Of a stretch of DNA of 64,000 nt, positions 937-58,067 are shown piece after piece. Source of the DNA: Mobula hypostoma (taxonomy: Eukaryota); NCBI RefSeq assembly GCF_963921235.1, contig NC_086108.1:7440001-7504000 (forward strand). Reading direction: 5' to 3'. The translations under genes were made by a program, and so were the position numbers. The notes beneath the pieces were generated by a model. It was not told the DNA's origin, ran no database searches, and saw nothing but the letters and a program-made list of their open reading frames with translations. Every line of letters starts with the position of its first letter. Positions within the stretch are counted from its first letter, which is position 1.

Positions 937-1212
937 TCGGAACAGCGCATTATATTCCCCCGCGGTAGTCTACAAACTCGGTAACATGGAATTCTCCAGT
1001 CTCCGGTGAATGGCTTCCCATGAGTCCCCCTTCTCTCTCCCTCTGCCCTACCCTGTTCCTCTGACACCCAGACCAGTCCCAATCACCCACTCCTCCACAC
1101 CTTCCATCTGCCCGTCACTCACACCCTCCCCCCACGCAGTCTCCTACCCCGCTGTTCCTGTCTGCCCTCCCACCTCCCTACCTCTCCTCCTCCATCACCT
1201 CGATCCCTCCAT
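937..1212 (+). mobile_element. Decayed Penelope-like element: GIY-YIG C-terminus and start of the 3' region (left flank of the satellite)
   Basis: Translates SEQRIIFPRGSLQ.../NMEFSSLR* (TGA 1007-1009), which aligns to EEQHFIFRLGSLQPDGMNIDFSNFH* at the end of the 55445-55894 ORF; followed by pyrimidine-rich sequence. Confidence 0.65.
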
Positions 1213-4200
1213 CACCTCGATGCACCCATCACCTCCCAGCCTCCGTCACTATTCCCACTCTCCCCTCCTCAATCAGCCTATCATCCCTCCTCACCTCGAT
1301 CCGCCCATCACCTCCCAGCCTCCGTCACTATTCACACTCTCCCCTCCTCCATCTGCCTATCATCCCTCCTCACCTCGATCCACCCATCACCACCCGGCCT
1401 CCGTCACTATTCACACTCTCCCCTCCTCCATCTGCTTGTCTCCCTCCTCACCTCGATCCACCCATCACCTCCCAGCCTCCGTCACTATTCACACTCTCCC
1501 CTCCTCCATCTGCTTGTCTCCCTCCTCACCTCGATCCGCCCATCACCTCCCAGCCTCCGTCACTATTCACACTCTCCCCTCCTCCATCTGCCTATCATCC
1601 TCCTCCCCTCGATCCGCCCAACACCTCCCAGCCTCCGTCACTATTCACACTCTCCCCTCCTCCATCTGCCTATCAAACCTCCTCACCTCGATCCGCCCAT
1701 CACCTCCCAGACTCCGTCACTATTCACACTCTCCCCTCCTCCATCTGCCTATCATCCCTCCTCGCCTCGATCCACCCATCACCTCCCAGACTCCGTCACT
1801 ATTCACACTCTCCCCTCCTCCATTGGCCTATCATCCCTCCTCGCCTCGATCCACCCATCAACTCCCAGCCTCTGTCACTATTCACACTCTCCCCTCCTCC
1901 ACCTCCCTATCATCCCTCTTCGCCTCGATCCACCCATCAACTCCCAGCCTCCGTCACTATTCACACTCTCCCCTCCTCCACCTCCCTATCCTCCCTCCTC
2001 ACCTCGATCCACCCATCACCTCCCAGCCTCCGTCACTATTCACACTCTCCCCTCCTCCATCTGCCTATCATCCCTCCTCACCTCGATCCGCCCATCACCT
2101 CCCAGCCTCCGTCACTATTCACACTCTCCCCTCCTCCATCTGCCTATCATCCCTGCTCACCTCGATCCGCCCATCACCTCCCAGCCTCCGTCACTATTCA
2201 CACTCTCCCCTCCTCCATCTGCCTATCATCCCTCCTCGCCTCGATCCGCCCATCACCTCCCAGCCTCCGTCACTATTCACACTCTCCCCTCCTCCATCTG
2301 CCTATCATCCCTCCTCACCTCGATCCGCCCATCACCTCCCAGCCTCCGTCACTATTCCCACTCTCCCCTCCTCCATCTGCCTATCATCCCTCCTCACCTC
2401 GATCCGCCCATCACCTCCCAGCCTCCGTCACTATTCCCACTCTCCCCTCCTCCATCTGCCTATCATCCCTCCTCACCTCGATCCGCCCATCACCTCCCAG
2501 CCTCCGTCACTATTCACACTCTCCCTCTCCCTCCATCTCAGCCTATCATCCCTCCTCACCTCATCCACCCATCACCTCCCAGCCTCCTCACTATTCACAC
2601 TCTCCCCTCCTCCACCTCCCTATCATCCCTCCTCGCCTCGATCCGCCCATCACCTCCCAGCCTCCGTCACTATTCACACTCTCCCCTCTCCATCTGCCTA
2701 TCCCTCCTCACCTCGATCCGCCCATCACCTCCCAGCCTCCGTCACTATTCACACTCTCCCCTCCTCCATCTGCCTATCATCCCTCCTCACCTCGATCCAC
2801 CCATCACCTCCCAGCCTCCGTCACTATTCACACTCTCCCCTCCTCCACCTCCCTATCATCCCTCCTCGCCTCGATCCGCCCATCACCTCCCAGCCTCCGT
2901 CACTATTCACACTCTCCCCTCCTCCATCTGCCTATCATCCCTCCTCACCTCGATCCACCCATCACCTCCCAGCCTCCGTCACTATTCCCACTCTCTCCTC
3001 CTCCATCTGCCTATCATCCGTCCTCCCTCGATCCGCCCATCACCTCCCAGCCTCCGTCACTATTCCACTCTCCCCTCCTCCACTCCCCCTCGATCCGCCC
3101 ATCATCCCTCCGTCACTATTCACACTCCCCTCCTCTTCATCCCTCCTCACCTCGATCCGCCCATCACCTCCCAGCCTCCGTCACTATTCACACTCTCCCC
3201 TCCTCCATCTGCCTATCATCCCTCCTCACCTCGATCCGCCCATCACCTCCCAGCCTCCGTCACTATTCCCACTCTCCCCTCCTCCATCTGCCTATCATCC
3301 CTCCTCACCTCGATCCGCCCATCACCTCCCAGCCTCCGTCACTATTCACACTCTCCCCTCCTCCATCTGCCTATCATCCCTCCTCACCTCGATCCGCCCA
3401 TCACCTCCCAGCCTCCGTCACTATTCACACTCTCCCCTCCTCCATCTGCCTATCATCCCTCCTCGCCTCGATCCGCCCATCACCTCCCAGCCTCCGTCAC
3501 TATTCACACTCTCCCCTCCTCCATCTGCCTATCATCCCTCCTCACCTCGATCCGCCCATCACCTCCCAGCCTCCGTCACTATTCACACTCTCCCCTCCTC
3601 CATCTCCTATCATCCCTCCTCACCTCGATCCGCCCATCACCTCCCAGCCTCCGTCACTATTCCCACTCTCCCCTCCTCCACCTCCCTATCATCCCTCCTC
3701 GCCTCGATCCGCCCATCACCTCCCAGCCTCCGTCACTATTCACACTCTCCCCTCCTCCATCTGCCTATCATCCCTCCTCACCTCGATCCGCCCATCACCT
3801 CCCAGCCTCCGTCACTATTCCCACTCTCCCCTCCTCCATCTGCCTATCATCCCTCCTCACCTCGATCCGCCCATCACCTCCCAGCCTCCGTCACTATTCA
3901 CACTCTCCCCTCCTCCATCTGCCTATCATCCCTCCTCACCTCGATCCACCCATCACCTCCCAGCCTCCGTCACTATTCACACTCTCCCCTCCTCCATCTG
4001 CCTATCATCCCTCCTCACCTCGATCCGCCCATCACCTCCCAGCCTCCGTCACTATTCCCACTCTCCCCTCCTCCATCTGCCTATCATCCCTCCTCGCCTC
4101 GATCCGCCCATCACCTCCCAGCCTCCGTCACTATTCACACTCTCCCCTCCTCCATCTGCCTATCATCCCTCCTCACCTCGATCCGCCCATCACCTCCCAG

Positions 4201-7200
4201 CCTCCGTCACTATTCACACTCTCCCCTCCTCCATCTGCCTATCATCCCTCCTCGCCTCGATCCGCCCATCACCTCCCAGCCTCCGTCACTATTCACACTC
4301 TCCCCTCCTCCACCTCCCTATCATCCCTCCTCGCCTCGATCCGCCCATCACCTCCCAGCCTCCGTCACTATTCACACTCTCCCCTCCTCCACCTCCCTAT
4401 CATCCCTCCTCGCCTCGATCCGCCCATCACCTCCCAGCCTCCGTCACTATTCACACTCTCCCCTCCTCCACCTCCCTATCATCCCTCCTCACCTCGATCC
4501 GCCCATCACCTCCCAGCCTCCGTCACTATTCACACTCTCCCCTCCTCCATCTGCCTATCATCCCTCCTCCCCTCGATCCGCCCATCACCTCCCAGCCTCC
4601 GTCACTATTCACACTCTCCCCTCCTCCACCTCCCTATCATCCCTCCTCACCTCGATCCGCCCATCACCTCCCAGCCTCCGTCACTATTCACACTCTCCCC
4701 TCCTCCATCTGCCTATCATCCCTCCTCACCTCGATCCGCCCATCACCTCCCAGCCTCCGTCACTATTCACACTCTCCCCTCCTCCATCTGCCTATCATCC
4801 CTCCTCGCCTCGATCCGCCCATCACCTCCCAGCCTCCGTCACTATTCACACTCTCCCCTCCTCCATCTGCCTATCATCCCTCCTCACCTCGATCCACCCA
4901 TCACCTCCCAGCCTCCGTCACTATTCCCACTCTCTCCTCCTCCATCTGCCTATCATCCCTCCTCACCTCGATCCGCCCATCACCTCCCAGCCTCCGTCAC
5001 TATTCACACTCTCCCCTCCTCCATCTGCCTATCATCCCTCCTCGCCTCGATCCACCCATCACCTCCCAGCCTCCGTCACTATTCACACTCTCCCCTCCTC
5101 CATCTGCCTATCATCCCTCCTCACCTCGATCCACCCATCACCTCCCAGCCTCCGTCACTATTCACACTCTCCCCTCCTCCATCTGCCTATCATCCCTCCT
5201 CGCCTCGATCCGCCCATCACCTCCCAGCCTCCGTCACTATTCCCACTCTCCCCTCCTCCATCTGCCTATCATCCCTCCTCACCTCGATCCGCCCATCACC
5301 TCCCAGCCTCCGTCACTATTCACACTCTCCCCTCCTCCATCTGCCTATCATCCCTCCTCACCTCGATCCGCCCATCACCTCCCAGCCTCCGTCACTATTC
5401 ACACTCTCCCCTCCTCCATCTGCCTATCATCCCTCCTCGCCTCGATCCGCCCATCACCTCCCAGCCTCCGTCACTATTCCACTCTCCCCTCCTCCATCTG
5501 CCTATCATCCCTCCTCGCCTCGATCCGCCCATCACCTCCCAGCCTCCGTCACTATTCACACTCTCCCCTCCTCCATCTGCCTATCATCCCTCCTCACCTC
5601 GATCCGCCCATCACCTCCCAGCCTCCGTCACTATTCCCACTCTCCCCTCCTCCACCTGCCTATCATCCCTCCTCGCCTCGATCCGCCCATCACCTCCCAG
5701 CCTCCGTCACTATTCACACTCTCCCCTCCTCCATCTGCCTATCATCCCTCCTCACCTCGATCCGCCCATCACCTCCCAGCCTCCGTCACTATTCACACTC
5801 TCCCCTCCTCCACCTCCCTATCATCCCTCCTCGCCTCGATCCGCCCATCACCTCCCAGCCTCCGTCACTATTCACACTCTCCCATCCTCCATCTGCCTAT
5901 CATCCCTCCTCCCCTCGATCCGCCCATCACCTCCCAGCCTCCGTCACTATTCCCACTCTCCCCTCCTCCATCTCCCTATCATCCCTCCTCACCTCGATCC
6001 GCCCATCACCTCCCAGCCTCCGTCACTATTCACACTCTCCCCTCCTCAATCAGCCTATCATCCCTCCTCACCTCGATCCAGCCCAGCACCTCCCAGCCTC
6101 CGTCACTATTCACACTCTCCCCTCCTCCATCTGCCTATCATCCCTCCTCACCTCGATCCGCCCATCACCTCCCAGCCTCCGTCACTATTCACACTCTCCC
6201 CTCCTCCATCTGCCTATCATCCCTCCTCACCTCGATCCGCCCATCACCTCCCAGCCTCCGTCACTATTCACACTCTCCCCTCCTCCACCTCCCTATCATC
6301 CCTCCTCGCCTCGATCCGCCCAGCACCTCCCAGCCTCCGTCACTATTCACACTCTCCCCTCCTCCATCTGCCTATCATCCCTCCTCACCTCGATCCGCCC
6401 ATCACCTCCCAGCCTCCGTCACTATTCCCACTCTCCCCTCCTCCATCTGCCTATCATCCCTCCTCACCTCGATCCACCCATCACCTCCCAGCCTCCGTCA
6501 CTATTCACACTCTCCCCTCCTCCATCTGCCTATCATCCCTCCTCACCTCGATCCACCCATCACCTCCCAGCCTCCGTCACTATTCACACTCTCCCCTCCT
6601 CCATCTGCCTATCATCCCTCCTCACCTCGATCCGCCCATCACCTCCCAGCCTCCGTCACTGTTCCCACTCTCCCCTCCTCCATTTGCCTATCATCCCTCC
6701 TCACCTCGATCCACCCATCACCTCCCAGCCTCCGTCACTATTCCCACTCTCCCCTCCTCCATCTGCCTATCATCCCTCCTCACCTCGATCCGCCCATCAC
6801 CTCCCAGCCTCCGTCACTATTCACACTCTCCCCTCCTCCATCTGCCTATCATCCCTCCTCACCTCGATCCGCCCATCACCTCCCAGCCTCCGTCACTATT
6901 CACACTCTCCCCTCCTCCATCTGCCTATCATCCCTCCTCGCCTCGATCCGCCCATCACCTCCCAGCCTCCGTCACTATTCACACTCTCCCCTCCTCCACC
7001 TCCCTATCATCCCTCCTCGCCTCGATCCGCCCATCACCTCCCAGCCTCCGTCACTATTCACACTCTCCCCTCCTCCATCTCCCTATCATCCCTCCTCACC
7101 TCGATCCGCCCATCACCTCCCAGCCTCCGTCACTATTCCCACTCTCACCTCCTCCAACTCCCTATCATTCCTCCTCGCCTCGATCCGCCCATCACCTCCC

Positions 7201-10200
7201 AGCCTCCGTCACTATTCACACTCTCCCCTCCTCCACCTCCCTATCATCCCTCCTCACCTCGATCCGCCCATCACCTCCCAGCCTCCGTCACTATTCACAC
7301 TCTCCCCTCCTCCACCTCCCTATCATCCCTCCTCACCTCGATCCGCCCATCACCTCCCAGCCTCCGTCACTATTCACACTCTCCCCTCCTCCACCTCCCT
7401 ATCATCCCTCCTCACCTCGATCCACCCATCACCTCCCAGCCTCCGTTACTATTCACACTCTCCCCTCCTCCATCTGCCTATCATCCCTCCTCCCCTCGAT
7501 CCGCCCATCACCTCCCAGCCTCCGTCACTATTCCCACTCTCACCTCCTCCAACTCCCTATCATTCCTCCTCGCCTCGATCCGCCCAGCACATCCCAGCCT
7601 CTGTCACTATTCACACTCTCACCTCCTCCATCTGCCTATCATCCCTCCTCACCTCGATCTGCCCATCACCTCCCAGCCTCCGTCACTATTCACACTCTCC
7701 CCTCCTCCATCTGCCTATCATCCCTCCTCGCCTCGATCCGCCCATCACCTCCCAGCCTCCGTCACTATTCACACTCTCCCCTCCTCCATCTGCCTATCAT
7801 CCCTCCTCACCTCGATCCGCCCATCACCTCCCAGCCTCCGTCACTATTCACACTCTCCCCTCCTCCATCTGCCTATCATCCCTCCTCACCTCGATCCGCC
7901 CATCACCTCCCAGCCTCCGTCACTATTCACACTCTCCCCTCCTCCATCTGCTTGTCTCCCTCCTCACCTCGCCATCACCTCCCATCACCTCCAGCCTCCG
8001 TCACTATTCACACTCTCCCCTCCTCCATCTGCCTATCATCCCTCCTCCCCTCGATCCGCCCATCACCTCCCAGCCTCCGTCACTATTCACACTCTCCCCT
8101 CCTCCATCTGCCTATCATCCCTCCTCCCCTCGATCCGCCCATCACCTCCCAGCCTCCGTTACTATTCACACTCTCCCCTCCTCCATCTGCCTATCATCCC
8201 TCCTCACCTCGATCCGCCCATCACCTCCCAGCCTCCGTCACTATTCACACTCTCCCCTCCTCCATCTGCCTATCATCCCTCCTCGCCTCGATCCACCCAT
8301 CACCTCCCAGCCTCCGTCACTATTCACACTCTCCCCTCCTCCATCTGCCTATCATCCCTCCTCGCCTCGATCCGCCCATCACCTCCCAGCCTCCGTCACT
8401 ATTCACACTCTCCCCTCCTCCACCTCCCTATCATCCCTCCTCGCCTCGATCCGCCCATCACCTCCCAGCCTCCGTCACTATTCACACACTCTCCCCTCCT
8501 CCACCTCCCTATCATCCCTCCTCACCTCGATCCGCCCATCACCTCCCAGCCTCCGTCACTATTCACACTCTCCCCTCCTCCATCTGCCTATCATCCCTCC
8601 TCACCTCGATCCGCCCATCACCTCCCAGCCTCCGTCACTATTCACACTCTCCCCTCCTCCATCTGCCTATCATCCCTCCTCACCTCGATCCGCCCATCAC
8701 CTCCCAGCCTCCGTCACTATTCACACTCTCCCCTCCTCCATCTGCCTATCATCCCTCCTCGCCTCGATCCGCCCATCACCTCCCAGCCTCCGTCACTATT
8801 CACACTCTCCCCTCCTCCATCTGCCTATCATCCCTCCTCACCTCGATCCGCCCATCACCTCCCAGCCTCCGTCACTATTCCCACTCTCCCCTCCTCCATC
8901 TGCCTATCATCCCTCCTCACCTCGATCCGCCCATCACCTCCCAGCCTCCGTCACTATTCCCACTCTCCCCTCCTCCATCTACCTATCATCCCTCCTCACC
9001 TCGATCCGCCCATCACCTCCCAGCCTCTGTCACTATTCACACTCTACCCTCCTCAATCAGCCTATCATCCCTCCTCACCTCAATCCACCCATCACCTCCC
9101 AGCCTCCATCACTATTCACACTCTCCCCTCCTCCACCTCCCTATCATCCCACCTCGCCTCGATCCGCCCATCACCTCCCAGACTCCGTCACTATTCACAC
9201 TCTCCCCTCCTCCATCTGCCTATCCCTCCTCACCTCAATCCACCCAGCACCTCCCAGCCTCCTTCACTATTCACACTCTCCCCTCCTCCATCTGCCTATC
9301 ATCCCTCCTCGCCTCGATCCGCCCATCACCTCCCAGCCTCCGTCACTATTCACACTCTCCCCTCCTCCATCTGCCTATCATCCCTCCTCACCTCGATCCA
9401 CCCATCACCTCCCAGCCTCCGTCACTATTCCCACTCTCCCCTCCTCCATCTGCCTATCATCCCTCCTCACCTCGATCCGCCCATCACCTCCCAGCCTCCG
9501 TCACTATTCACACTCTCCCCTCCTCCATCTGCCTATCATCCCTCCTCACCTCGATCCGCCCATCACCTCCCAGCCTCCGTCACTATTCACACTCTCCCCT
9601 CCTCCATCTGCCTATCATCCCTCCTCACCTCGATCCGCCCATCACCTCCCAGCCTCCGTCACTATTCCCACTCTCCCCTCCTCCATCTGCCTATCATCCC
9701 TCCTCACCTCGATCCGCCCATCACCTCCCAGCCTCCGTCACTATTCACACTCTCCCCTCCTCCATCTGCCTATCATCCCTCCTCACCTCGATCCGCCCAT
9801 CACCTCCCAGCCTCCGTCACTATTCACACTCTCCCCTCCTCCATCTGCCTATCATCCCTCCTCGCCTCGATCCGCCCATCACCTCCCAGCCTCCATCACT
9901 ATTCCCACTCTCCCCATCTCCATCTGCCTATCATCCCTCCTCGCCTCGATCCGCCCATCACCTCCCAGCCTCCGTCACTATTCACACTCTCCCCTCCTCC
10001 ATCTGCCTATCATCCCTCCTCACCTCGATCCGCCCATCACCTCCCAGCCTCCGTCACTATTCCCACTCTCCCCTCCTCCACCTCCCTATCATCCCTCCTC
10101 GCCTCGATCCGCCCATCACCTCCCAGCCTCCGTCACTATTCACACTCTCCCCTCCTCCATCTGCCTATCATCCCTCCTCACCTCGATCCGCCCAGCACCT

Positions 10201-13200
10201 CCCAGCCTCCGTCACTATTCCCACTCTCCCCTCCTCCACCTCCCTATCATCCCTCCTCGCCTCGATCCGCCCATCACCTCCCAGCCTCCGTCACTATTCC
10301 CACTCTCACCTCCTCCAACTCCCTATCATTCCTCCTCGCCTCGATCCGCCCAGCACCTCCCAGCCTCCGTCACTATTCACACTCTCCCCTCCTCCATCTG
10401 CCTATCATCCCTCCTCACCTCGATCCGCCCATCACCTCCCAGCCTCCGTCACTATTCACACTCTCCCCTCCTCCATCTGCCTATCATCCCTCCTCACCTC
10501 GATCCGCCCATCACCTCCCAGCCTCCGTCACTATTCCCACTCTCCCCTCCTCCATCTGCCTATCATCCCTCCTCACCTCGATCCGCCCATCACCTCCCAG
10601 CCTCCGTCACTATTCACACTCTCCCCTCCTCCATCTGCCTATCATCCCTCCTCGCCTCGATCCGCCCATCACCTCCCAGCCTCCGTCACTATTCACACTC
10701 TCCCCTCCTCCATCTGCCTATCATCCCTCCTCCCCTCGATCCACCCATCACCTCCCAGCCTCCGTCACTATTCACACTCTCCCCTCCTCCACCTCCCTAT
10801 CATCCCTCCTCGCCTCGATCCGCCCATCACCTCCCAGCCTCCGTCACTATTCACACTCTCCCCTCCTCCATCTCCCTATCATCCCTCCTCACCTCGATCC
10901 GCCCATCACCTCCCAGCCTCCGTCACTATTCACACTCTCCCCTCCTCCACCTCCCTATCATCCCTCCTCGCCTCGATCCGCCCATCACCTCCCAGCCTCC
11001 GTCACTATTCACACTCTCCCCTCCTCCACCTCCCTATCATCCCTCCTCGCCTCGATCCGCCCATCACCTCCCAGCCTCCGTCACTATTCACACTCTCCCC
11101 TCCTCCATCTGCCTATCATCCCTCCTCACCTCGATCCACCCATCACCTCCCAGCCTCCGTCACTATTCACACTCTCCCCTCCTCCATCTGCCTATCATCC
11201 CTCCTCGCCTCGATCCGCCCATCACCTCCCAGCCTCCGTCACTATTCACACTCTCCCCTCCTCCATCTGCCTATCATCCCTCCTCACCTCGATCCACCCA
11301 TCACCTCCCAGCCTCCGTCACTATTCCCACTCTCCCCTCCTCCATCTGCCTATCATCCCTCCTCACCTCGATCCGCCCATCACCTCCCAACTCCGTCACT
11401 ATTCACACTCTCCCCTCCTCCATCTGCCTATCATCCCTCCTCGCCTCGATCCGCCCATCACCTCCCAGCCTCCGTCACTATTCACACTCTCCCCTCCTCC
11501 ATCTGCCTATCATCCCTCCTCACCTCAATCCACCCATCACCTCCCAGCCTCCATCACTATTCACACTCTCCCCTCCTCCATCTGCCTATCATCCCTCCTC
11601 GCCTCGATCCGCCCATCACCTCCCAGCCTCCGTCACTATTCACACTCTCCCCTCCTCCATCTGCCTATCATCCCTCCTCACCTCGATCCGCCCATCACCT
11701 CCCAGCCTCCGTCACTATTCACACTCTCCCCTCCTCCATCTGCCTATCATCCCTCCTCACCTCGATCCGCCCATCACCTCCCAGCCTCCATCACTATTCA
11801 CACTCTCCCCTCCTCCATCTGCCTATCATCCCTCCTCGCCTCGATCCGCCCATCACCTCCCAGCCTCCGTCACTATTCCCACTCTCCCCTCCTCCATCTG
11901 CCTATCATCCCTCCTCGCCTCGATCCGCCCATCACACCCCAGCCTCCGGCACTATTCACACTCTCCCCTCCTCCATCTACCTATCATCCCTCCTCACCTC
12001 GATCCGCCCAGCACCTCCCAGCCTCCGTCACTATTCCCACTCTCCCCTCCTCCACCTCCCTATCATCCCTCCTCGCCTCGATCCGCCCATCACCTCCCAG
12101 CCTCCGTCACTATTCACACTCTCCCCTCCTCCATCTGCCTATCATCCCTCCTCACCTCGATCCGCCCAGCACCTCCCAGCCTCCGTCACTATTCACACTC
12201 TCCCCTCCTCCATCTCCCTATCATCCCTCCTCACCTCGATCCGCCCATCACCTCCCAGCCTCCGTCACTATTCCCACTCTCCCCTCCTCCATCTGCCTAT
12301 CATCCCTCCTCACCTCGATCCGCCCATCACCTCCCAGCCTCCGTCACTATTCCCACTCTCCCCTCCTCCATCTGCATATCATCCCTCCTCACCTCGATCC
12401 GCCCATCACCTCCCAGCCTCCGTCACTATTCACACTCTCCCCTCCTCAATCAGCCTATCATCCCTCCTCACCTCGATCCAGCCAGCACCTCCCAGCCTCC
12501 GTCACTATTCACACTCTCCCCTCCTCCATCTGCCTATCATCCCTCCTCACCTCGATCCGCCCATCACCTCCCAGCCTCCGTCACTATTCCCACTCTCCCC
12601 TCCTCCATCTGCCTATCATCCCTCCTCGCCTCGATCCACCCATCACCTCCCAGCCTCCGTCACTATTCACACACTCCCCTCCTCCACCTCCCTATCATCC
12701 CTCCTCGCCTCGATCCGCCCAGCACCTCCCAGCCTCCGTCACTATTCACACTCTCCCCTCCTCCATCTGCCTATCATCCCTCCTCACCTCGATCCGCCCA
12801 TCACCTCCCAGCCTCCGTCACTATTCCCACTCTCCCCTCCTCCATCTGCCTATCATCCCTCCTCACCTCGATCCACCCATCACCTCCCAGTCTCCGTCAC
12901 TATTCACACTCTCCCCTCCTCCATCTGCCTGTCATCCCTCCTCGCCTCGATCCACCCATCACCTCCCAGCCTCCGTCACTGTTCCCACTCTCCCCTCCTC
13001 CACCTGCCTATCATCCCTCCTCACCTCGATCCACCCATCACCTCCCAGCCTCCGTCACTGTTCCCACTCTCCCCTCCTCCATCTGCCTATCATCCCTCCT
13101 CACCTCGATCCGCCCATCACCTCCCAGCCTCCGTCACCATTCCCACTCTCCCCTCCTCCATCTGCCAATCATCCCTCCTCCCCTCGATCCGCCCATCACC

Positions 13201-16200
13201 TCCCAGCCTCCGTCACCATTCCCACTCTCCCCTCCTCCATCTGCCAATCATCCCTTCTCACCTCGATCCGCCCAGCACCTCCCAGCCTCCGTCACCATTC
13301 CCACTCTCCCCTCCTCCATCTGTCTATCATCCCTCCTCCCCTCGATCCGCCCAGCACCTCCCAGCCTCCGTCACTATTCCCACTCTCCCCTCCTCCACCT
13401 CCCTATCATCCCTCCTCGCCTCGATCCGCCCATCACCTCCCAGCCTCCGTCACTATTCCCACTCTCCCCTCCTCCACCTCCCTATCATCCCTCCTCGCCT
13501 CGATCCGCCCAGCACCTCCCAGCCTCCGTCACTATTCACACTCTCCCCTCCTCCATCTGCCTATCATCCCTCCTCCCCTCGATCCGCCCATCACCTCCCA
13601 GCCTCCGTCACTATTCCCACTCTCACCTCCTCCACCTCCCTATCATCCCTCCTCACCTCGATCCGCCCATCACCTCCCAGCCTCCGTCACTATTCACACT
13701 CTCCCCTCCTCCACCTCCCTATCATCCCTCCTCACCTCGATCCGCCCATCACCTCCCAGCCTCCGTCACTATTCACACTCTCCCCTCCTCCACCTCCCTA
13801 TCATCCCTCCTCACCTCGATCCACCCATCACCTCCCAGCCTCCGTTACTATTCACACTCTCCCCTCCTCCATCTGCCTATCATCCCTCCTCCCCTCGATC
13901 CGCCCATCACCTCCCAGCCTCCGTCACTATTCCCACTCTCACCTCCAACTCCCTATCATTCCTCCTCGCCTCGATCCGCCCAGCACATCCCAGCCTCTGT
14001 CACTATTCACACTCTCACCTCCTCCATCTGCCTATCATCCCTCCTCACCTCGATCTGCCCATCACCTCCCAGCCTCCGTTACTATTCACACTCTCCCCTC
14101 CTCCATCTGCCTATCATCCCTCCTCACCTCGATCCGCCCATCACCTCCCAGCCTCCGTCACTATTCACACTCTCCCCTCCTCCATCTGCATATCATCCCT
14201 CCTCACCTCGATCCGCCCATCACCTCCCAGCCTCCGTCACTATTCACACTCTCCCCTCCTCCATCTGCCTATCATCCCTCCTCGCCTCGATCCGCCCATC
14301 ACCTCCCAGCCTCCGTCACTATTCCCACTCTCCCCTCCTCCATCTGCCTATCATCCCTCCTCACCTCGATCCGCCCATCACCTCCCAGCCTCCGTCACTA
14401 TTCACACTCTCCCCTCCTCCATCTGCCTATCATCCCTCCTCACCTCGATCCGCCCATCACCTCCCAGCCTCCGTCACTATTCACACTCTCCCCTCCTCCA
14501 TCTGCCTATCATCCCTCCTCGCCTCGATCCGCCCATCACCTCCCAGCCTCCGTCACTATTCCCACTCTCCCCTCCTCCATCTGCCTATCATCCCTCCTCG
14601 CCTCGATCCGCCCATCACCTCCCAGCCTCCGTCACTATTCACACTCTCCCCTCCTCCATCTGCCTATCATCCCTCCTCACCTCGATCCGCCCATCACCTC
14701 CCAGCCTCCGTCACTATTCCCACTCTCCCCTCCTCCACCTCCCTATCATCCCTCCTCGCCTCGATCCGCCCATCACCTCCCAGCCTCCGTCACTATTCAC
14801 ACTCTCCCCTCCTCCATCTGCCTATCATCCCTCCTCACCTCGATCCGCCCAGCACCTCCCAGCCTCCGTCACTATTCCCACTCTCCCCTCCTCCACCTCC
14901 CTATCATCCCTCCTCGCCTCGATCCGCCCAGCACCTCCCAGCCTCCGTCACTATTCACACTCTCCCCTCCTCCATCTGCCTATCATCCCTCCTCACCTCG
15001 ATCCGCCCATCACCTCCCAGCCTCCGTCACTATTCCCACTCTCCCCTCCTCCATCTGCCTATCATCCCTCCTCACCTCGATCCGCCCATCACCTCCCAGC
15101 CTCCGTCACTATTCACACTCTCCCCTCCTCCATCTGCCTATCATCCCTCCTCACCTCGATCCACCCATCACCTCCCAGCCTCCGTCACTATTCACACTCT
15201 CCCCTCCTCCATCTGCCTATCATCCCTCCTCACCTCGATCCGCCCATCACCTCCCAGCCTCCGTCACTATTCCCACTCTCCCCTCCTCCATCTGCCTATC
15301 ATCCCTCCTCGCCTCGATCCGCCCATCACCTCCCAGCCTCCGTCACTATTCACACTCTCCCCTCCTCCACCTCCCTATCATCCCTCCTCGCCTCGATCCG
15401 CCCAGCACCTCCCAGCCTCCGTCACTATTCACACTCTCCCCTCCTCCATCTGCCTATCATCCCTCCTCACCTCGATCCGCCCATCACCTCCCAGCCTCCG
15501 TCACTATTCCCACTCTCCCCTCCTCCATCTGCCTATCATCCCTCCTCACCTCGATCCACCCATCACCTCCCAGTCTCCGTCACTATTCACACTCTCCCCT
15601 CCTCCATCTGCCTGTCATCCCTCCTCGCCTCGATCCGCCCATCACCTCCCAGCCTCCGTCACTGTTCCCACTCTCCCCTCCTCCACCTCCCTATCATCCC
15701 TCCTCACCTCGATCCGCCCATCACCTCCCAGCCTCCGTCACCATTCCCACTCTCCCCTCCTCCATCTGCCAATCATCCCTCCTCACCTCGATCCGCCCAT
15801 CACCTCCCAGCCTCCGTCACTATTCCCACTCTCCCCTCCTCCATCTGCCTATCATCCCTCCTCACCTCGATCCGCCCATCACCTCCCAGCCTCCGTCACT
15901 ATTCACACTCTCCCCTCCTCCATCTGCCTATCATCCCTCCTCACCTCGATCCGCCCATCACCTCCCAGCCTCCGTCACTATTCACACTCTCCCCTCCTCC
16001 ATCTGCCTATCATCCCTCCTCCCCTCGATCCGCCCATCACCTCCCAGCCTCCGTCACTATTCCCACTCTCCCCTCCTCCACCTCCCTATCATCCCTCCTC
16101 GCCTCGATCCGCCCATCACCTCCCAGCCTCCGTCACTATTCCCACTCTCCCCTCCTCCATCTCCCTATCATCCCTCCTCGCCTCGATCCGCCCAGCACCT

Positions 16201-17785
16201 CCCAGCCTCCGTCACTATTCCCACTCTCCCCTCCTCCACCTCCCTATCATCCCTCCTCACCTCGATCCGCCCATCACCTCCCAGCCTCCGTCACTATTCC
16301 CACTCTCCCCTCCTCCACCTCCCTATCATCCCTCCTCACCTCGATCCGCCCATCACCTCCCAGCCTCCGTCACTATTCACACTCTCCCCTCCTCCACCTC
16401 CCTATCATCCCTCCTCACCTCGATCCGCCCATCACCTCCCAGCCTCCGTCACTATTCACACTCTCCCCTCCTCCACCTCCCTATCATCCCTCCTCACCTC
16501 GATCCACCCATCACCTCCCAGCCTCCGTCACTATTCACACTCTCCCCTCCTCCATCTGCCTATCATCCCTCCTCCCCTCGATCCGCCCATCACCTCCCAG
16601 CCTCCGTCACTATTCACACTCTCCCCTCCTCCAACTCCCTATCATCCCTCCTCGCCTCGATCCGCCCAGCACCTCCCAGCCTCCGTCACTATTCACACTC
16701 TCCCCTCCTCCATCTGCCTATCATCCCTCCTCACCTCGATCCGCCCATCACCTCCCAGCCTCCGTCACTATTCACACTCTCCCCTCCTCCATCTGCCTAT
16801 CATCCCTCCTCACCTCGATCCGCCCATCACCTCCCAGCCTCCGTCACTATTCACACTCTCCCCTCCTCCATCTGCCTATCATCCCTCCTCACCTCGATCC
16901 GCCCATCACCTCCCAGCCTCCGTCACTATTCCACTCTCCCCTCCTCCATCTGCCTATCATCCCTCCTCACCTCGATCCGCCCATCACCTCCCAGCCTCCG
17001 TCACTATTCACACTCTCCCCTCCTCCATCTGCCTATCATCCCTCCTCACCTCGATCCGCCCATCACCTCCCAGCCTCCGTCACTATTCACACTCTCCCCT
17101 CCTCCATCTGCCTATCATCCCTCCTCACCTCGATCCGCCCATCACCTCCCAGCCTCCGTCACTATTCACACTCTCCCCTCCTCCATCTGCCTATCATCCC
17201 TCCTCACCTCGATCCGCCCATCACCTCCCAGCCTCCGTCACTATTCACACTCTCCCCTCCTCCATCTGCCTATCATCCCTCCTCACCTCGATCCGCCCAT
17301 CACCTCCCAGCCTCCGTCACAATTCCCACTCTCCCCTCCTCCATCTGCCAATCATCCCTCCTCGCCTCGATCCGCCCATCACCTCCCAGCCTCTGTCACT
17401 ATTCACACTCTCCCCTCCTCCATCTGCCTATCATCCCTCCTCACCTCGATCCGCCCATCACCTCCCAGCCTCCGTCACTATTCACACTCTCCCCTCCTCC
17501 ATCTGCCTATCATCCCTCCTCACCTCGATCCGCCCATCACCTCCCAGCCTCCGTCACTATTCACACTCTCCCCTCCTCCATCTGCCTATCATCCCTCCTC
17601 CCCTCGATCCGCCCATCACCTCCCAGCCTCCGTTACTATTCACACTCTCCCCTCCTCCACCTCCCTATCATCCCTCCTCACCTCGATCCGCCCAGCACCT
17701 CCCAGCCTCCGTCACTATTCACACTCTCCCCTCCTCCATCTGCCTATCATCCCTCCTCCCCTCGATCCGCCCATCACCTCCCAGC
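1213..17785 (+). repeat. 79-bp C-rich tandem array (satellite), ~210 copies
   Basis: Unit CTCGATCCGCCCATCACCTCCCAGCCTCCGTCACTATTCACACTCTCCCCTCCTCCATCTGCCTATCATCCCTCCTCAC; period 79 (e.g. 2161 to 2240); the translation repeats every 79 aa (3 units). Confidence 0.98.
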
Positions 17786-17870
17786 TCTTGCGCCTCCCCT
17801 TCTCTCCGCTTCTTTGTTGACTTATCTTCTTTCACCCAGTTGAGGGGTGTTGACCCAAAATGTAGACTTT
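17786..17870 (+). mobile_element. Remainder of the Penelope-like 3' region with a degenerate hammerhead motif (right flank of the satellite)
   Basis: CCAGCTCTTG...CAGTTGAGGGGTGTTGACCCAAAATGTAGACT resembles CCAGCTCTTGG...AGTCCTGACGAAGGGTCTCGGCCCGAAACGTCGACT of younger copies. Confidence 0.5.
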
Positions 17871-18529
17871 CCACAACCCTGCTTACATCTTTACAGTGTC
17901 TCCCATGAAGTGATATCTCCTGGAATAACACATTTTCTGCTTTCTTCTCGCTGTTTACCCCTGTTCACTTCAGGTCTTGGGTGGACTCTCTATATCAGTC
18001 CCATATTCCAACCAGGCTGAGCTGCTGCGGTTTGCCTGTTGTGCTGGTAAAAACACCTCCAATCCAGTCTTCCCTGTGATCCACAGAGCCACAGGGCTCG
18101 ACAGCACAGAAACAGGCCCTTCAGCCCATCAAGTTCGTGCCAGCTCAGTCTTCTGCTTATTTTCATCTATCTGCACCTGGGCCATAGCCGCCCCATCCAC
18201 GTACTGTACCAATCCAAACTTCTCTTCATTCTTCCAGCACCTCCCCTGGCAGCTGCTTCCTTGTTCGCACCACCCTGAGCGAAAAAGCTCCCCCGTAAAT
18301 ATTTCACTTTTGACCTCAAGTTCCAATCTCAGCCAACCTGAGGGGAAAAAGCTGCTTGTGTATACTCTGTCTATACCCTCATCATTTTGTAAACCTTTAT
18401 CATTATAACTCAGGTCATAGAATCATAGAGCTATAGAAAACTACAGCACCGAATCAGTCTAGTCTGATTAATCTGCCTCACCAACTTCAGCGTAACTTTC
18501 CAACCCCTGTATTCAATACGTTGATACTT

Positions 18530-21980: not shown

Positions 21981-22451
21981 ATCCAACATCCCCAAATGTA
22001 AAAGACTAGGAAATAAAAACAGTGGTGTTATTAACTTGCGTACCCCTGGTATCTCAGCAACAGTTTATCAATACAAAACATCACTTGTTGTCCAAGTGTT
22101 ATAGACCATACTCAGAACCATACACAGCTCAGAAACAGGCATTTCAGCCCTACTCTCTCCATGCTGACCAAGATTCCCATTGAAGCTAGTCCCATTTGCC
22201 TGCGTTTGGCCCAGTTGGCTTGAAACCTTTCCGCTCCATGTACTCGCCCGAGTTAAATGTTAATTATCTGTCTCAACTACTTTATCCTGGAGCTCATTCC
22301 AGTTACGTCACCCTCTGCGTGAAAGTATTGCCTCCCTCCTAGGTTCCTGTTAAATCTCCTTCTTCTCAAAGTAAATTTGCGTACTCTAGTAACATACATC
22401 AAAGTTGCTGGTGAACGCAGCAGGCCAGGCAGCATCTCTAGGAAGAGGTGC

Positions 22452-22487
22452 GGTCGACGTTTCAGGCCGAGACCCTTCGTCAGGACT
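22452..22487 (-). ncRNA. Minimal type I hammerhead ribozyme motif (Penelope pLTR)
   Basis: Reverse strand AGTC-CTGACGA-A-GGGT-CTCG-GCCT-GAAA-CG-TC-GACC. Confidence 0.7.
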
Positions 22488-23277
22488 AACTGAAGGAAGA
22501 GTGAGTAAGGGATTTGAAAGCTGGAGGGGGAGGGGGAGATGCAAAATGATAGGAGAAGACAGGAAGGGGAGGGATAGAGCCAAGAGCTGGACAGGTGATA
22601 GGCAAAAGGGGATACGAGAGGATCATGGGACAGGAGGTCCGGGAAGAAAGACAAAGAGGGGGGGAACCCAGAGGATGGGCAAGAGGTATATTCAGAGGGA
22701 CAGAGGGAGAAAAAGGAGAGTGAGAGAAAGAATGTGTGCATAAAAATAAGTAACAGATGGGGTACGAGGGGGAGGTGGGGCCTTAGCGGAAGTTAGAGAA
22801 GTCGATGTTCATGCCATCAGGTTGGAGGCTACCCAGACGGAATATAAGGTGTTGTTCCTCCAACCTGAGTGTGGCTTCATCTTTACAGTAGAGGAGGCCG
22901 TGGATAGACATGTCACCTTATATTCCGTCTGGGTAGCCTCCAACCTGATGGCATGATCATCGACTTCTCTAACTTCCGCTAATGCCCCACCTCCCCCACG
23001 TACCCCATCTGTTACTCATCTTTATGCACACATTCTTTCTCTCACTCTCCTTTTTCTCCCTCTGTCCCTCTGAATATACCTCTTGCCCATCCTCTGGGTC
23101 ACCCCCCCCCCTTGTCTTTCTTCCCGGACCTCCTGTCCCATGATCCTCTCGTATCCCTTTTGCCTATCACCTGTCCAGCTCTCGGCTCCATCCCTCCCCC
23201 TCCTGTCTTCTCCTATCATTTTGGATCTCCCCCTCCCCCTCCAGCTTTCAAATCCCTTACTCACTCTTCCTTCAGTT

Positions 23278-23313
23278 AGTCCTGACGAAGGGTCTCGGCC
23301 TGAAACGTCGACT
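23278..23313 (+). ncRNA. Minimal type I hammerhead ribozyme motif (Penelope pLTR)
   Basis: AGTC-CTGACGA-A-GGGT-CTCG-GCCT-GAAA-CG-TC-GACT: CUGANGA/GAAA core, GUC cleavage triplet, stem I AGTC/GACT. Confidence 0.75.
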
Positions 23314-23489
23314 GCACCTCTTCCTAGAGATGCTGCTTGGCCTGCTGCGTTCACCAGCAACTTTGATGTATGTTGCTTGAATTTCCAGCATCTGCAGAAT
23401 TCCTGTTGTTTGCGTACTCTAGTTTTAGATTGCCCAACCCTGGGGGAAAACAACTGTGTGCATTCACCTTATATGTGCCCCACGTGATG

Positions 23490-28309: not shown

Positions 28310-28545
28310 CAAACACGAGAAAGTATGCAGATACTGGAAATCCAAAGCAACATTCACATATTGCTGGAGGAACTCAGCAGGTCAGGCTGCATCTGTGGAA
28401 AAGAGTAAACAGTCATGTTTTGGGCCGAGATCCTTCATCAGAACTGGACAAGAAGGGTTTCAACCTGAAACATGGACTGTTTACTCTTTTCCACAGATGC
28501 TGCCCAAACTGCTGAGTTCCTTCAGCAGTTTGTGTGTGCTGCTGT
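28310..28545. mobile_element. Short fold-back element made of two head-to-head Penelope pLTR tails
   Basis: GGAACTCAGCAG...GCATCTGTGGAAAAGAGTAAACAGTC is mirrored by GACTGTTTACTCTTTTCCACAGATGC...CTGCTGAGTTCC; degenerate hammerheads meet at the centre. Confidence 0.7.
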
Positions 28546-30524: not shown

Positions 30525-30770
30525 TTAGAGCAACACACACACACACACGCAAAATGCTGGAGGAACTCATCAGGTCAGGCAGCATCCGTGGAGGGGAAGA
30601 AGCAGCCGACGTTTTGGGTCGAGGCCCCCCATCAGTGAATAAACGCCGACTGTTTATTCCTCTCCAATAGATGCTGCCTGACCTTGCTGAATTTCCCTAG
30701 CACTTTGCGTGTGTGCGTGTGTGTGTGTTGCTCTGGATTTCCAGCATGTGCAGAATCTCTTGTGTTTATG
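30525..30770. mobile_element. Short fold-back Penelope pLTR-derived element
   Basis: AGGTCAGGCAGCATC...CAGCCGACGTTT is mirrored by AAACGCCGACTG...GATGCTGCCTGACCT, with (CA)n/(TG)n ends. Confidence 0.7.
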
Positions 30771-33802: not shown

Positions 33803-34170
33803 CTGTGTCCTCTGGTCCTAGACTCACCCACCATAGGAAACACCCTCTCCACATCCACTCTATCTGTGCCCTCTGGTCCTAGACTCCCCCGCTATAGGAA
33901 ACATCCTCTCCACATCCACTCTATCTGTGCCCTCTGGTCCTAGACTCCCCCACCATAGGAAACATCCTCTCCACATCCACTCTATCTGTGCCCTCTGGTC
34001 CTAGACTCCCCCACCATAGGAAACATCCTCTCCACATCCACTCTATCTGTGCCTTCTGGTCCTAGACACCCCCCACTATAGGAAACATCCTCTCCACATC
34101 CACTCTATCTGTGCCCTCTGGTCCTAGACTCCCCCACCATAGGAAACATCCTCTCCACATCCACCCTATC
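33803..34170 (+). repeat. ~61-bp tandem repeat x6 expanded inside a minus-strand CR1 3' end
   Basis: CTGTGCCCTCTGGTCCTAGACTCCCCCACCATAGGAAACATCCTCTCCACATCCACTCTAT repeated; single-copy equivalent at 44495-44545. Confidence 0.9.
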
Positions 34171-34504
34171 TAGACTTTTCAATATTCAATAGGTTTCAGT
34201 GAGATTCCACCCCTGCCCCCCAACCTTGGAAGGAGAGAAGTAATGGTGAAGATGACAAAATGTTGAGGTATGTAGGTACCTGAAGTACAAAGGTTTTAAG
34301 TCTATAAGGCATTGGAGCAGAATTAGGCCATTCAGCCCATTGAGTCTGCTCTGCCATTCCATCATGGCTGATTTACTATCCCTCTCAACCCCATTCTCCT
34401 GCCTTCTCCCTGTTGGAAACATCCTTTCCACATCCACGCTATCTAGGCCTTTCATTATAGATTTCAATGAGATTCGCCCCACCCAATTCTTCTAAATTCC
34501 AGCA

Positions 34505-39190: not shown

Positions 39191-39711
39191 GAACTATATA
39201 GTACATCACCATATACTACCCTGAGATTCATTTTCTTGCAGGCATTCACAGCAACATAAAGAAATACAATAGGATTAATGAAAAACTGTATATAAAATCC
39301 TGGCAATTCTGGACAATGTTTCTCACTCTCTGCATGCCACCTTGGCTGAACAGAGGAGCACTTTTAGTAGCAGACTAAGACAACTGTACTGCTCCAAAGA
39401 GCGCTACATGAGGTCATTCTTACCCTTGGCCATTAGGCTGGACAATGAGTCAACCTATAGCCAGGGAAGTGATGACTCCCTCCTGTTAAACTTATTGTGG
39501 TAACTTGTTTTTTGTTATTTGTACTTCTCTTCTAATATTTATATCTCTGCACTTGTAATGCTACTGAGACAATGTAATTTCCTTTGGGATCAATGAAGTA
39601 TCTATCCATCTAGCTAAACAAAGACCGACAAACAACCAACTGTGCAAATAAAAAATATATACTTTTGAGAGCGAGAGTTGTAGAGTCCTTGAAGGGGAGG
39701 AAATAAATGTG

Positions 39712-39926
39712 CCTGAACCTGGTGGTGTGGGACCTGAGGCTCATTGTGATGAGTGAAGTTATCCACACTGGTTCAGGAGCCTGATGGTTGTGGGGTAATA
39801 ACTGTTCCTGAACCTGGTGGTGTGGGACCTGAGGCTCATTGTGGTGAGTGAAGTTATCCACACTGGTCCAGGAGCCTGATGGTTGTGGGGTAATAACTGT
39901 TCCTGAACCTGGTGGTGTGGGACCTA
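39712..39926 (+). repeat. 95-bp tandem duplication (~2.3 copies) within a Rex/Babar 3' end
   Basis: CCTGAACCTGGTGGTGTGGGACCT at 39712, 39807 and 39902. Confidence 0.9.
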
Positions 39927-40969
39927 AAGCTCCTGTACCTCCTGCCCGATGGCAGCAGTGAGAAGAAAGCATGGCCTGGATGGTGGGGTCCTTGATGTTA
40001 GATGCTGATTTCTTGCGGCAGTACTCTATGTAAATATCTCTCTGAAACCAAGCTGTTATGACCAGAGCTGGTGGTGGTCAACAGGATATAAAGGAGAATG
40101 TTTACCTGAAATGGAGGGAAACCCGCAAACAGACAAGCAATTCACACTGCTTGTAAGGAGTTTGTACGTTCTCCCCGTGGTCAACACCGTAGTGTAGTGG
40201 TTAGCACGTCGGTTTACAGTTCAGATAACTCGGGTTCAATTCCCACTGCTGTCTCTGTGGAGTTTGCATGTTTTCCACTGTGGTTGCGTGGGTTTGCTCC
40301 GGGTGCTCTAGTTTCCTCCCCCATAGCAGTTGGTAGGTGCATTGACCCTAAAGCTGTGATTGGGCTAGGGTTAAATCTGAATTAATAAAGAATAATAATA
40401 AATTAGTGTGGTAAGAACAAAGGAAAGACAGGACTGGAAAATCGTTGACTTAGTCTCAGTCAGACAAGAGATAACAACATTCCAGTGATAGCAGTTAATC
40501 TGTGAAATCACCAGTTTCAGGCCATGTGACACCTGCTACTGAAAACTAAGAAGCTTGTAGAAAAATACAAAAGCAACTGTAAAATTGCTGGGAAATTCAC
40601 TGAATTATTACATATATAGGGGTGATTATATTAAAAATAGAAGCAAGCATTGGAAACTTAAACCTGAAAAATAACAACTTTACACCCCAATTCAACACAT
40701 CATTCTGTGCTGTGTTATATGATGTTAGCGATCATGGTCTTTCCAGGACCATGATTGTTCTTGGCAGATTTTTCTACAGAAATGGTTTGCTATTGGTTTC
40801 TTCTGGGCAGCGTCTTTACAAGACGGGTAACCCCAGCCATTATTAATACTCTTCAGAGATTGTCTGCCTGGTGTCAGTGGTTGCATAACCAGGACTTGTG
40901 AAATACACCAGCCGCTCATACGACCATCCGCCACCTGCTCCCATGGCTTCATGTGACCCTGATGGGTGG

Positions 40970-44959: not shown

Positions 44960-45170
44960 GAAACACAGAGGTTGCCAGTGAGATCGTGGAATGCTGCTGG
45001 GACTCAGCAGGTCAGGAAGCATCTATGGATTTCGGGCTGAGAAGGTGAAAGATCCCGGCCCGAAATGCCGACTGTTTACTCTTTTTCCATAGACGCTGCC
45101 TGTGAGTTCCTCCGGCGTTTTGTGTGGGTTACTCTGGATTTCCAGCTTCTGCAGACTTTCGCTTGTTTAT
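44960..45170. mobile_element. Short fold-back Penelope pLTR-derived element
   Basis: GACTCAGCAGGTCAGGAAGCATCTATGGA...TTCGGGC is mirrored by GCCCGAAA...TCCATAGACGCTGCCTG. Confidence 0.6.
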
Positions 45171-46629: not shown

Positions 46630-47165
46630 TTCAGTAATTTCTCCTTCCCTCCCCTTCGCTCTTTTTCCATTCTCCATTCTAGATCCCCTCTCACCCCTTC
46701 CCTTCTCCTCACCTGCCTATCACCGCCTTCTGGCCCCCCTTTTCCTTCCCTATCTCCCACAGTCCACTCTCTTCTCCTATCAGATTCCTCCTTCTTCAGC
46801 CTGTTATGTCTTCCACCCATCACCTCCCAGCTCCTCACTTCATTCCCCTCTCCCCACCCACTCATTCCCCCCTCACCTACCGTCTCCTCTCATTCCCTCC
46901 TTCCCTATTCCCCATGGTCGCCTGTCCTCTTCCATCAGTCTTCAGCACTTTACCACCCAGCTTCTCACTTCATCTACCCTCCCCTCACCTGGTCTCACCT
47001 ATTACTTGCCAGCTTGTACTCCTCCCACCTTCTTATTCTGGCCTCCTCTCCCTCCTTTCCAGTCCCGATGAAGGGTCTCGGCTTAAAATGTCGACTGATT
47101 ATTCCCCTCCATAGATGCTGCCTGACCTTCTGAGTTCCTCGGGCATTTTTTGTGTGTGTTACTGT
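46630..47165 (+). mobile_element. Penelope-like pLTR, older subfamily, with mutated hammerhead (47061-47096)
   Basis: Pyrimidine-rich body including CCACCCATCACCTCCCAGC, then AGTCCCGATGAAGGGTCTCGGCTTAAAATGTCGACT. Confidence 0.75.
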
Positions 47166-57800: not shown

Positions 57801-58067
57801 AATAAAATACAAATTAAATCAGTAGCTCTAAAAGAGACTGAAATAATGAAGTAGTGTTCATGGGTTCATGGATTACAATATTCGGAAATCTGACTGGAGG
57901 GGAGGAAGCTATTCCTAAAATGCTAAGCGTGTATCTTAAAGCTCCAGTACCTCCTCTGTGATGGTAGTAATGAGGAGAGGGCACGTCCTGGGAGATGGGA
58001 GTCCTCAAAGATGGAGGCTGCATTCTTGAGGCATTGCCTTTTGAAGGTGTCCTCGACGGTGGGCAAG

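Follow-up and report, generated by a model that had tools for sequence, protein, structure and literature searches.

The stretch of Mobula hypostoma DNA analysed here (64,000 nt, hereafter the window) contains a satellite that probably grew in place, inside the tail of a single old, dead and 5′-truncated copy of a Penelope-like element (PLE). TRF reported a period of 79 nt at 1182–3082 (24.2 copies) and at 3137–17785 (185.5 copies, 96% matches). Splitting at the anchors described below gave 209 units from position 1227 (1227..17771, + strand), and a last partial unit ends at 17786. The initial annotation had proposed that a unit of about 79 bp was amplified about 210-fold, which agrees with 209 units plus a terminal partial over 1227–17786. 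The array is C-rich on the + strand (GC content 0.60), and its consensus has three CpGs per unit. Unit length is exactly 79 nt in 191 of the 209 units; these full-length units comprise 64 types, differ by 2.3% from the consensus and are 3.8% apart in pairwise comparisons. Units with indels are concentrated near 2488–3160 and 7901–8060. This long head-to-tail run of homogeneous monomers qualifies the array as a satellite.

On its + strand, the array can be read without a stop in all three frames, over about 5,600 codons each. We rejected a coding role for them, because the consensus unit simply has no stop triplet on this strand; such open frames could mislead gene callers. No canonical G-quadruplex motif was found on the G-rich strand of the array. 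Outside it, a Pfam search of 91 ORFs (most of those of at least 88 aa, without the frames within PLE tails and part of the LINE antisense frames) had RVT_1 and ALKBH8_N as its only matches. ALKBH8_N lay in apparent LINE debris, and no host gene was identified, although short exons would escape such a search.

The two sides of the array carry the two ends of one element, both on the + strand: an ORF end on the left and a hammerhead on the right. The PLE family in question has a single ORF with a reverse transcriptase (RT) and a C-terminal GIY-YIG domain (RVT_1, E = 1.1e-4; GIY-YIG, E = 4.6e-4 to 2e-3, all under Pfam cut-offs), of which the array locus keeps only the decayed last 23 codons or so (939..1009, with a 5-nt deletion and a stop at 1007–1009). 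The peptides SEQRIIFPRGSLQ and NMEFSSLR* of this flank lie in two different frames, and a profile built from five other ORF ends of the window matches 939–1004 on the + strand (nhmmer, E = 3.8e-4), the alignment opening a 5-nt gap where the frame changes. The ORF end scores z values of 6–13 against five of eight copies in the window and is identical to the copy near 55 kb at 53 of 79 columns, which bears out the earlier description of this flank as a decayed GIY-YIG C-terminus. Ray proteins carrying RT and GIY-YIG terminate in a matching peptide, and the letters of the ortholog at 982, 1000 and 1001 fit the family profile better than those of this locus. Ray homologs of the 55-kb copy show 74–88% identity among the best six; its ORF end gave 243 and 3 pattern matches in locus searches, none confirmed. 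Since the ORF-end match starts only at 939, and no PLE piece was seen upstream of it in the window, the element is a 5′-truncated relic; the two terminal repeats of a full-length PLE were not found at the locus.

Between ORF end and array, also on the + strand, lie 1010..1181, assigned by position to a pyrimidine-rich and heavily decayed 3′ UTR or terminal-repeat sequence, and 1182..1226, a degenerate partial unit in which 17 nt are duplicated (TRF start at 1182, with a period-17 row). The 45 nt directly left of unit 1 are thus a degenerate unit and not the upstream sequence of the parent. An alignment of five sequences, the left flank and window copies, was uninformative in its middle part.

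On the right, a trailing anchor (17768..17786, + strand) leads from the array into element sequence, followed by the rest of the 3′ UTR (17787..17832, assigned by position) and a dead minimal hammerhead (17833..17879). We recognised the motif in the terminal repeats of the window by the hammerhead core boxes. Minimal hammerheads in PLE terminal repeats provide the context (PMC4209133). A profile built from ten other terminal repeats matches 17833–17879 on the + strand (nhmmer, E = 5.6e-3, model positions 39–90 of about 144), and 20 of 27 nt are identical to an intact copy, in keeping with the degenerate hammerhead reported for this flank. The motif is intact in the PLE copies of the window and damaged here, where stem II complementarity is kept, both core boxes are hit and the last 55 nt or so of the element are not recognisable. 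Its predicted folding is unlike that of intact copies; across four hammerhead stretches, intact copies included, no folding z-score was significant. Rfam calls no hammerhead over 17700–64000, intact copies included (nine weak matches, none to a hammerhead family), and hence the hammerhead is named from its motif and from published work.

Order, strand and spacing fit one PLE copy whose ORF end and ribozyme were pushed about 16.8 kb apart, as the initial annotation had it. With the array reduced to a single unit, ORF end and hammerhead lie 374 nt apart (about 330 if the degenerate partial unit is left out), next to 244–316 nt in five window copies. The alignment of the collapsed array, run here against eight window copies, gave z values of 2.2–5.6 for seven of them, with 17787..17832 in register with the copy at 46.8 kb and the right junction running collinear into its hammerhead. 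The claim that the parent is readable on either side of the array therefore stands for both ends and for the right junction, but not for the UTR pieces: against the same eight copies, neither 1010–1180 (best z 2.2) nor 17787–17832 (best z 1.3) alone did better than local shuffles. The flanks are 26–33% off their best matches in the window, and the parent was probably of a subfamily with no other representative there.

Copies of an internal 18-nt repeat delimit the amplified segment. The leading anchor (1223..1240, + strand) has an exact copy at 46814–46831, and the trailing anchor lines up collinearly with the final anchor-like repeat ahead of the hammerhead in the 46.8-kb copy. The 19-mer said to be common to the unit and the pLTR near 46813 does have an exact copy at 46813–46831, and with up to two mismatches it occurs 206 times in the window against none in shuffles; the letters quoted for it are a minority form, since the variable site is G in 158 of the 191 full-length units and A in 31. 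In each of three runs, the match of 61–66 dispersed contigs to the locus breaks off just before 1223, at the start of the anchor, and these contigs have an upstream consensus in common; the consensus of these loose ends agrees with 46784–46813 at 20–22 of 30 nt (hand count). The 18-nt repeat at both unit ends is the likely seed of the array.

An abundant family, dispersed in three species (Mobula hypostoma and two relatives), contains the unit as one of its segments. The unit matches the 46.8-kb copy at 69% over 151 columns (blastn, E = 6e-8). Dispersed contigs that match it at 80% likeness or more number above 100 per run in organisms A and B, while organism C has about 25. At 80% likeness the summed depth is 1e4–1e5 at the unit and 13–17 at 930–999, summed contig depth not being copy number. 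No dispersed contigs match the ORF end at this likeness, and few match 1010..1181 (summed depth about 30–170, against about 10 for single-copy DNA). In similarity to the parent family, the unit far exceeds the array's own flanks. The unit differs from the dispersed majority at three consensus sites at least (array-type alleles 18C, 71C and 77G), all three consensus CpGs among the differences. Pattern scans with the unit found no match in metagenome contigs and none in viral contigs, and a 53-aa minus-strand translation over the right junction had no match among 1.84 billion representatives.

Variants within the array record how it grew. At a lag of 81 units, similarity between units is above that at any lag in all 500 permutations; lag 115 exceeds the permutations in 499 of 500, and lag 34 alone is not significant (51 of 500). 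Common variants show all four allele combinations in 16 of 20 pairs. Growth therefore involved duplications of 6.4-kb blocks and exchange between units. Segregating variants show no overall weak-to-strong bias relative to the consensus (8 W>S and 16 S>W among alleles seen at least twice), which counts against simple GC-biased conversion. The three CpG-creating changes have p = 0.005 if the unit has no further differences, but p = 0.07 if the differences total six.

Together, these patterns suggest the following course. A 5′-truncated PLE inserted before organisms A and B split, as the orthology reported below shows, its pyrimidine-rich 3′ region holding a 79-nt segment between two internal repeats of about 18 nt. 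Slippage or unequal exchange between these repeats may have made the first duplication. Unequal exchange and conversion, with the multi-kilobase block duplications that the variant patterns show, then led from a dimer to some 210 units, separating the ORF end from the now dead hammerhead. CpG-creating variants may have risen meanwhile, most likely by biased conversion between units. The product would be a neutral single-locus satellite or VNTR with neither ribozyme nor coding role.

One observation does not follow from this course: if a single old copy had decayed at an even pace, a unit near the dispersed majority would not be expected between flanks so far off. Alternatively, the relic may have come first, and a unit or short run may have been introduced afterwards, at the homologous position, by ectopic conversion or break repair from a family member that was younger or had been better preserved, and then expanded. 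The degenerate partial unit at the left junction and the lack of dispersed contigs at the ORF end fit such a second step, which we nevertheless consider unlikely. The relic is orthologous in organism B, where a contig leads out of unique DNA, across the ORF end and 1010..1181, and stops 26 nt into unit 1, at the same base as the contig of organism A; the first 26 nt of the unit were already in place there. The 17-nt duplication of 1182..1226 is missing in organism B ('17 left out at 1189' in contig runs X5 and X7). Moreover, A and B differ at 22 of 437 positions beside the array and at 5 of 367 farther off (p = 0.005), so that fast local decay of the flanks could explain the gap between unit and flanks, and the 80% filter itself favours dispersed copies resembling the unit. 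Among the contigs of organisms B and C we found no ortholog with a single unit; one contig of organism C matches 1223–1319 only, from anchor to anchor, which is an array-type junction.

Growth in place also has to be weighed against arrival as a block, amplified elsewhere and carried in by an extrachromosomal circle or by transposition, with the PLE ends adjacent by chance or through homology-guided insertion. The segment is duplicated at other loci too, and hence the array locus is not its sole tandem form; a diverged junction contig of depth 65 in organism C is among the other forms, and the window is dense in PLE debris. Unit–unit junctions also occur in unrelated flanks (X7 record 21, X1 record 6, X9 record 31). 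From these junctions it follows that the first duplication may have come with the inserted copy. However, the listed A and B tandem forms in other flanks are only 80–94% alike and not of the array type, and the array begins and ends at the anchor, keeping the register of the parent. Given the density of element ends over 17.9–64 kb (14 hammerhead tails on the + strand and about three ORF ends per strand), simple arithmetic puts the chance that both ends flank the array below 0.1%. We thus regard block insertion as very improbable.

Less probable still is an RNA-templated origin, in which retrozyme-like rolling circles, or the PLE enzyme stuttering as it reverse-transcribed, made an array that was inserted with the element. 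PLE terminal sequences are known to yield tandem non-LTR retrozymes (bioRxiv 10.64898/2026.07.22.740005). The present units lack hammerhead boxes, with GAAA absent from either strand and CTGA from the + strand, and we rejected a retrozyme identity, which requires a type I hammerhead in each unit. The many unit types, the shuffled common variants and the block duplications are instead a history of DNA recombination. That the length of the array is mostly an assembly artefact is hardly credible: our evidence does come from contigs, which break at 1252, and indel-bearing units do cluster, but the duplicated blocks are similar and not identical (the longest identical run is four units) and rare variants return at fixed lags.

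With these results the array clearly joins the satellites born from transposable elements, a kind known before; it does not reveal a new mechanism. In the SINE-derived satellites (sSats) of squamates, a single locus holds from a few to hundreds of copies of an internal segment (about 70–290 nt) of an abundant retroelement, likewise with leading and trailing monomers, and longer sSat loci are more uniform (PMC10702118). Their parents are SINEs, whereas the present parent is the 3′ region of a PLE in a ray, at one long locus. Satellites derived from Ogre elements, such as PisTR-A of pea (PMC7004042) and the FabTR repeats of Lathyrus sativus (PMC9659126), also start from a repeat-prone non-coding part of a retroelement, with short tandems in many copies and long arrays at few sites. 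They stem from a plant LTR retrotransposon, however, and their expansion is tied to primary constrictions. In Alu, B1 and MaLR elements, minisatellites that arose between short repeats on either side share, under the model of Haber and Louis, a pre-existing short direct repeat within the element and growth by slippage, conversion and unequal crossing-over; the ray array differs in its seed (about 18 nt against 5–10) and in exceeding about 100 units (PMC6947457). Non-LTR retrozymes are tandem repeats of PLE terminal sequence for which local amplification after insertion has been proposed, but each of their units bears a hammerhead, while the ray unit ends about 50 nt before it (bioRxiv 10.64898/2026.07.22.740005). 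For HviSat02-2707 of Harttia, a PLE-related satellite, the sections consulted report similarity only, without parent halves around the array (PMC11955569).

In the main texts of the open literature we found neither this unit nor any PLE-derived satellite of elasmobranchs described, although the supplements of the retrozyme preprint could list the family; PMC3833285 mentions Penelope only in its references. For the PLE 3′ region as satellite donor, the literature search returned reports of similarity and no case showing both parent halves. The ray array thus offers a clean vertebrate satellite with a legible birthplace, whose donor is a PLE 3′ region without the ribozyme. As the ancestral unit is legible in dispersed copies, the direction of change within the array is measurable. 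A broader reading, possible but on balance doubtful, is that the internally repeated 3′ region of this abundant family is a recurrent nursery of arrays in rays, and that exchange between units lifts CpG-creating alleles against methylation decay, keeps the rest of the unit near-ancestral and raises the substitution rate of the neighbouring single-copy DNA by a factor of about 3.5. If that were true, the ancestral unit and thousands of dispersed controls would give a direct measure of conversion bias and of array-linked mutagenesis.

The tandem array claimed in the initial annotation is real. TRF reports a period of 79 at 1182-3082 and 3137-17785, and splitting at the anchor motif (the 18-nt internal repeat that bounds the amplified segment) yields 209 units from 1227 and a terminal partial unit up to 17786. 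The length is exactly 79 nt in 191 of the 209 units, and the 18 indel-bearing units were excluded from the unit-divergence and unit-type counts. These 191 units differ by a mean of 2.3% from the consensus and 3.8% from each other; they comprise 64 types, the consensus sequence itself accounting for 41 units. A 19-mer previously quoted as shared with a dispersed copy is matched exactly at 46813-46831, but it is not the array's usual form, as 158 of the 191 units have G for its A. Three stop-free frames of ~5,600 codons each cross the array on the + strand (1010-17905, 1024-17817 and 1065-17840), the first beginning with an ATG directly behind the relic's stop codon. They are compositional, because stop triplets are absent from the + strand of the consensus unit.

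The array is flanked by the two ends of a Penelope-like element (PLE) relic. Profiles built from other window copies match a PLE ORF end at 939-1004 (+, E=3.8e-4) and a hammerhead stretch at 17833-17879 (+, E=5.6e-3), in agreement with the earlier proposal of a decayed ORF end on the left and a degenerate hammerhead on the right. The relic ORF end has lost 5 nt and shares 53 of 79 columns with the copy at 55 kb. In the hammerhead stretch, 20 of 27 nt agree with an intact copy; stem II complementarity is kept, but both core boxes are damaged and the stretch is therefore presumably dead. With the array collapsed to one unit, 374 nt separate ORF end and hammerhead, versus 244-316 in five window copies, and 45 nt of the excess are a degenerate partial unit (1182-1226). 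As a whole, the collapsed locus aligns better than local shuffles to 7 of 8 window copies (z 2.2-5.6), but the UTR pieces 1010-1180 and 17787-17832, each taken alone, are no better than composition against window copies. Against the 46.8-kb copy, the register is kept from the unit end through the anchor and right flank to the hammerhead. These results support the interpretation that the array was born in place from this PLE copy, which we consider probable.

Part of the region 300-1345 is contained in 12 of the 18 runs listed for it (three organisms, three studies). Contigs were compared for four of the 18: X1 (organism A, possibly the source sample), X5 and X7 (relative B, one sample) and X9 (relative C). 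Organism B carries the orthologous site, its contigs showing 12 differences from the window over 300-828 and 22 over 799-1252; the latter stretch lacks the 17-nt duplication of the window's degenerate partial unit, and the B and A contigs share their last base. Organism C has the unique left flank, with 5 differences over 300-666. A single 109-nt C contig crosses from one unit to the next with 3 differences over 80 nt; parent-type alleles would give more. This one contig hints that the array is older than the A/C split. Within the otherwise single-copy left flank, 34 nt (760-793) come from a repeat of very high abundance (summed depth ~1e5).

The unit is near the dispersed family, but its flanks differ by 26-33% from their best window matches, and the ORF end attracted no dispersed contigs at 80% likeness. 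Divergence between A and B climbs toward the array, from 5/367 (300-666) through 7/162 (667-828) to 22/437 (799-1252; p=0.005 against 300-666), and CpG transitions are only 3 of the 28 differences listed. Fast local decay beside the array would fit the diverged flanks, and the lower divergence of the distant stretch 300-666 may simply result from constraint. A two-step history, in which the unit was copied in later from a younger element, is unlikely. Taking the PLE density in 46 kb as the null (14 + strand tails, ~3 ORF ends per strand), the chance of both PLE ends falling at their observed places is below 0.1% (hand arithmetic), and insertion of the array from elsewhere seems quite improbable.

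The unit region is matched by more than 100 dispersed contigs in every A and B run and by ~25 in C. In X1, X5 and X7, at least 61-66 contigs per run have a match that ends just before 1223, the anchor start, and their shared upstream consensus agrees at 20-22 of 30 nt (hand count) with the sequence preceding the anchor in the 46.8-kb copy. One C contig has its match limited to 1223-1319, anchor to anchor. Together, these contigs indicate that the amplified segment sits between two ~18-nt repeats in the parent family. Unit-unit junctions at 80-94% likeness are also set in unrelated flanks in several of the listed contigs (among them X7 record 21 and X1 record 6), and C has a diverged junction at depth 65; hence the segment duplicates at other loci too.

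In the favoured reading, the segment would first have been duplicated through its two internal repeats, following the short-repeat model that PMC6947457 summarises; growth then proceeded by unequal exchange and conversion, as the variant pattern shows. Likeness between units 81 apart (6.4 kb) exceeds the best lag in 500/500 permutations, and between units 115 apart in 499/500; lag 34 alone is not significant, yet rare variants still recur at 33-35. Of 20 pairs of common variants, 16 show all four allele combinations, a sign of exchange between array units. The longest stretch of identical units is four, so the duplicated blocks are not assembly duplicates, and an artefact is very improbable; an RNA-templated array is equally so.

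The observed/expected CpG ratio is 1.14 in the array versus 0.40 in 17.9-64 kb. At all three consensus CpG sites the dispersed majority has a letter that makes no CpG, namely T at position 18 of the unit (94-98% of summed depth), G at position 71 (59-75%) and A at position 77 (79-95%), and the commonest segregating variant (position 67, 60/191 units) creates a fourth CpG. CpG-creating changes are only 17% of those possible; for the three among the consensus differences listed, p=0.005 as 3/3 and 0.07 as 3/6. Because there is no weak-to-strong excess among the segregating variants as a whole, the pattern argues only weakly for biased conversion; low methylation is an alternative account of these CpGs.

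The window is mostly transposon debris, with no host gene found by Pfam in 91 of its ORFs. A profile search gives 22 strong matches to the PLE terminal region, and at least two subfamilies are present. The ORF end at 55448-55900 (-) lies within an open 201-codon stretch (55448-56050, -) that terminates in the PLE GIY-YIG C-terminus. Its longer homologs number 18, and the best six (74-88% identity) belong by name to Mobula hypostoma and Hypanus sabinus, which points to a myliobatiform ray as the host. RT and GIY-YIG matches in the homologs are all below Pfam cut-offs, and the array's left flank echoes the C-terminal peptide of several. This peptide also lies at one end of several ray database proteins with host-gene names, which suggests exonisation or mis-annotation. 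Rfam called no hammerhead, even in intact window copies, and the label rests on the core-box motif and on the minimal hammerheads described in terminal repeats of fish PLEs (PMC4209133).

A head-to-head pair of young truncated PLE copies of one subfamily (22385-23385) has the hammerhead motif intact in each. The 46.8-kb copy (46695-47051) contains a separate internal duplication of ~121 nt in the region that corresponds to the unit, and the 49-kb copy (49345-49680, -) has two 3' tails in tandem. PLE terminal pieces also occur as very short inverted pairs that form hairpins, at 28343-28545, 30534-30726 and 44990-45136, with weak, sub-threshold Rfam miRNA-model matches at 28374-28516 and 30575-30681. 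Short arrays at 33803-34171 (61 nt x 6) and 39702-39932 (95 nt x 2.4) are possibly other element-derived duplications. A LINE with broken frames lies at 57927-60384 (+; RVT_1, E=3.4e-27), and a gag-like ORF, seen by eye and with no Pfam match, at the window end (63477-63998, +).

We found no published report of the 79-nt unit in the main texts of literature outside subscription journals. A 2026 preprint on non-LTR retrozymes (bioRxiv 10.64898/2026.07.22.740005) proposes that PLE termini amplify locally in tandem as retrozymes; units of this array have no hammerhead box, and a retrozyme identity was rejected. Satellites and minisatellites from retroelement parts are already well documented: SINE-derived satellites in squamates (PMC10702118), Ogre-derived repeats (PMC7004042), others listed in PMC9659126, and PLE-related satellites in Harttia (PMC11955569).
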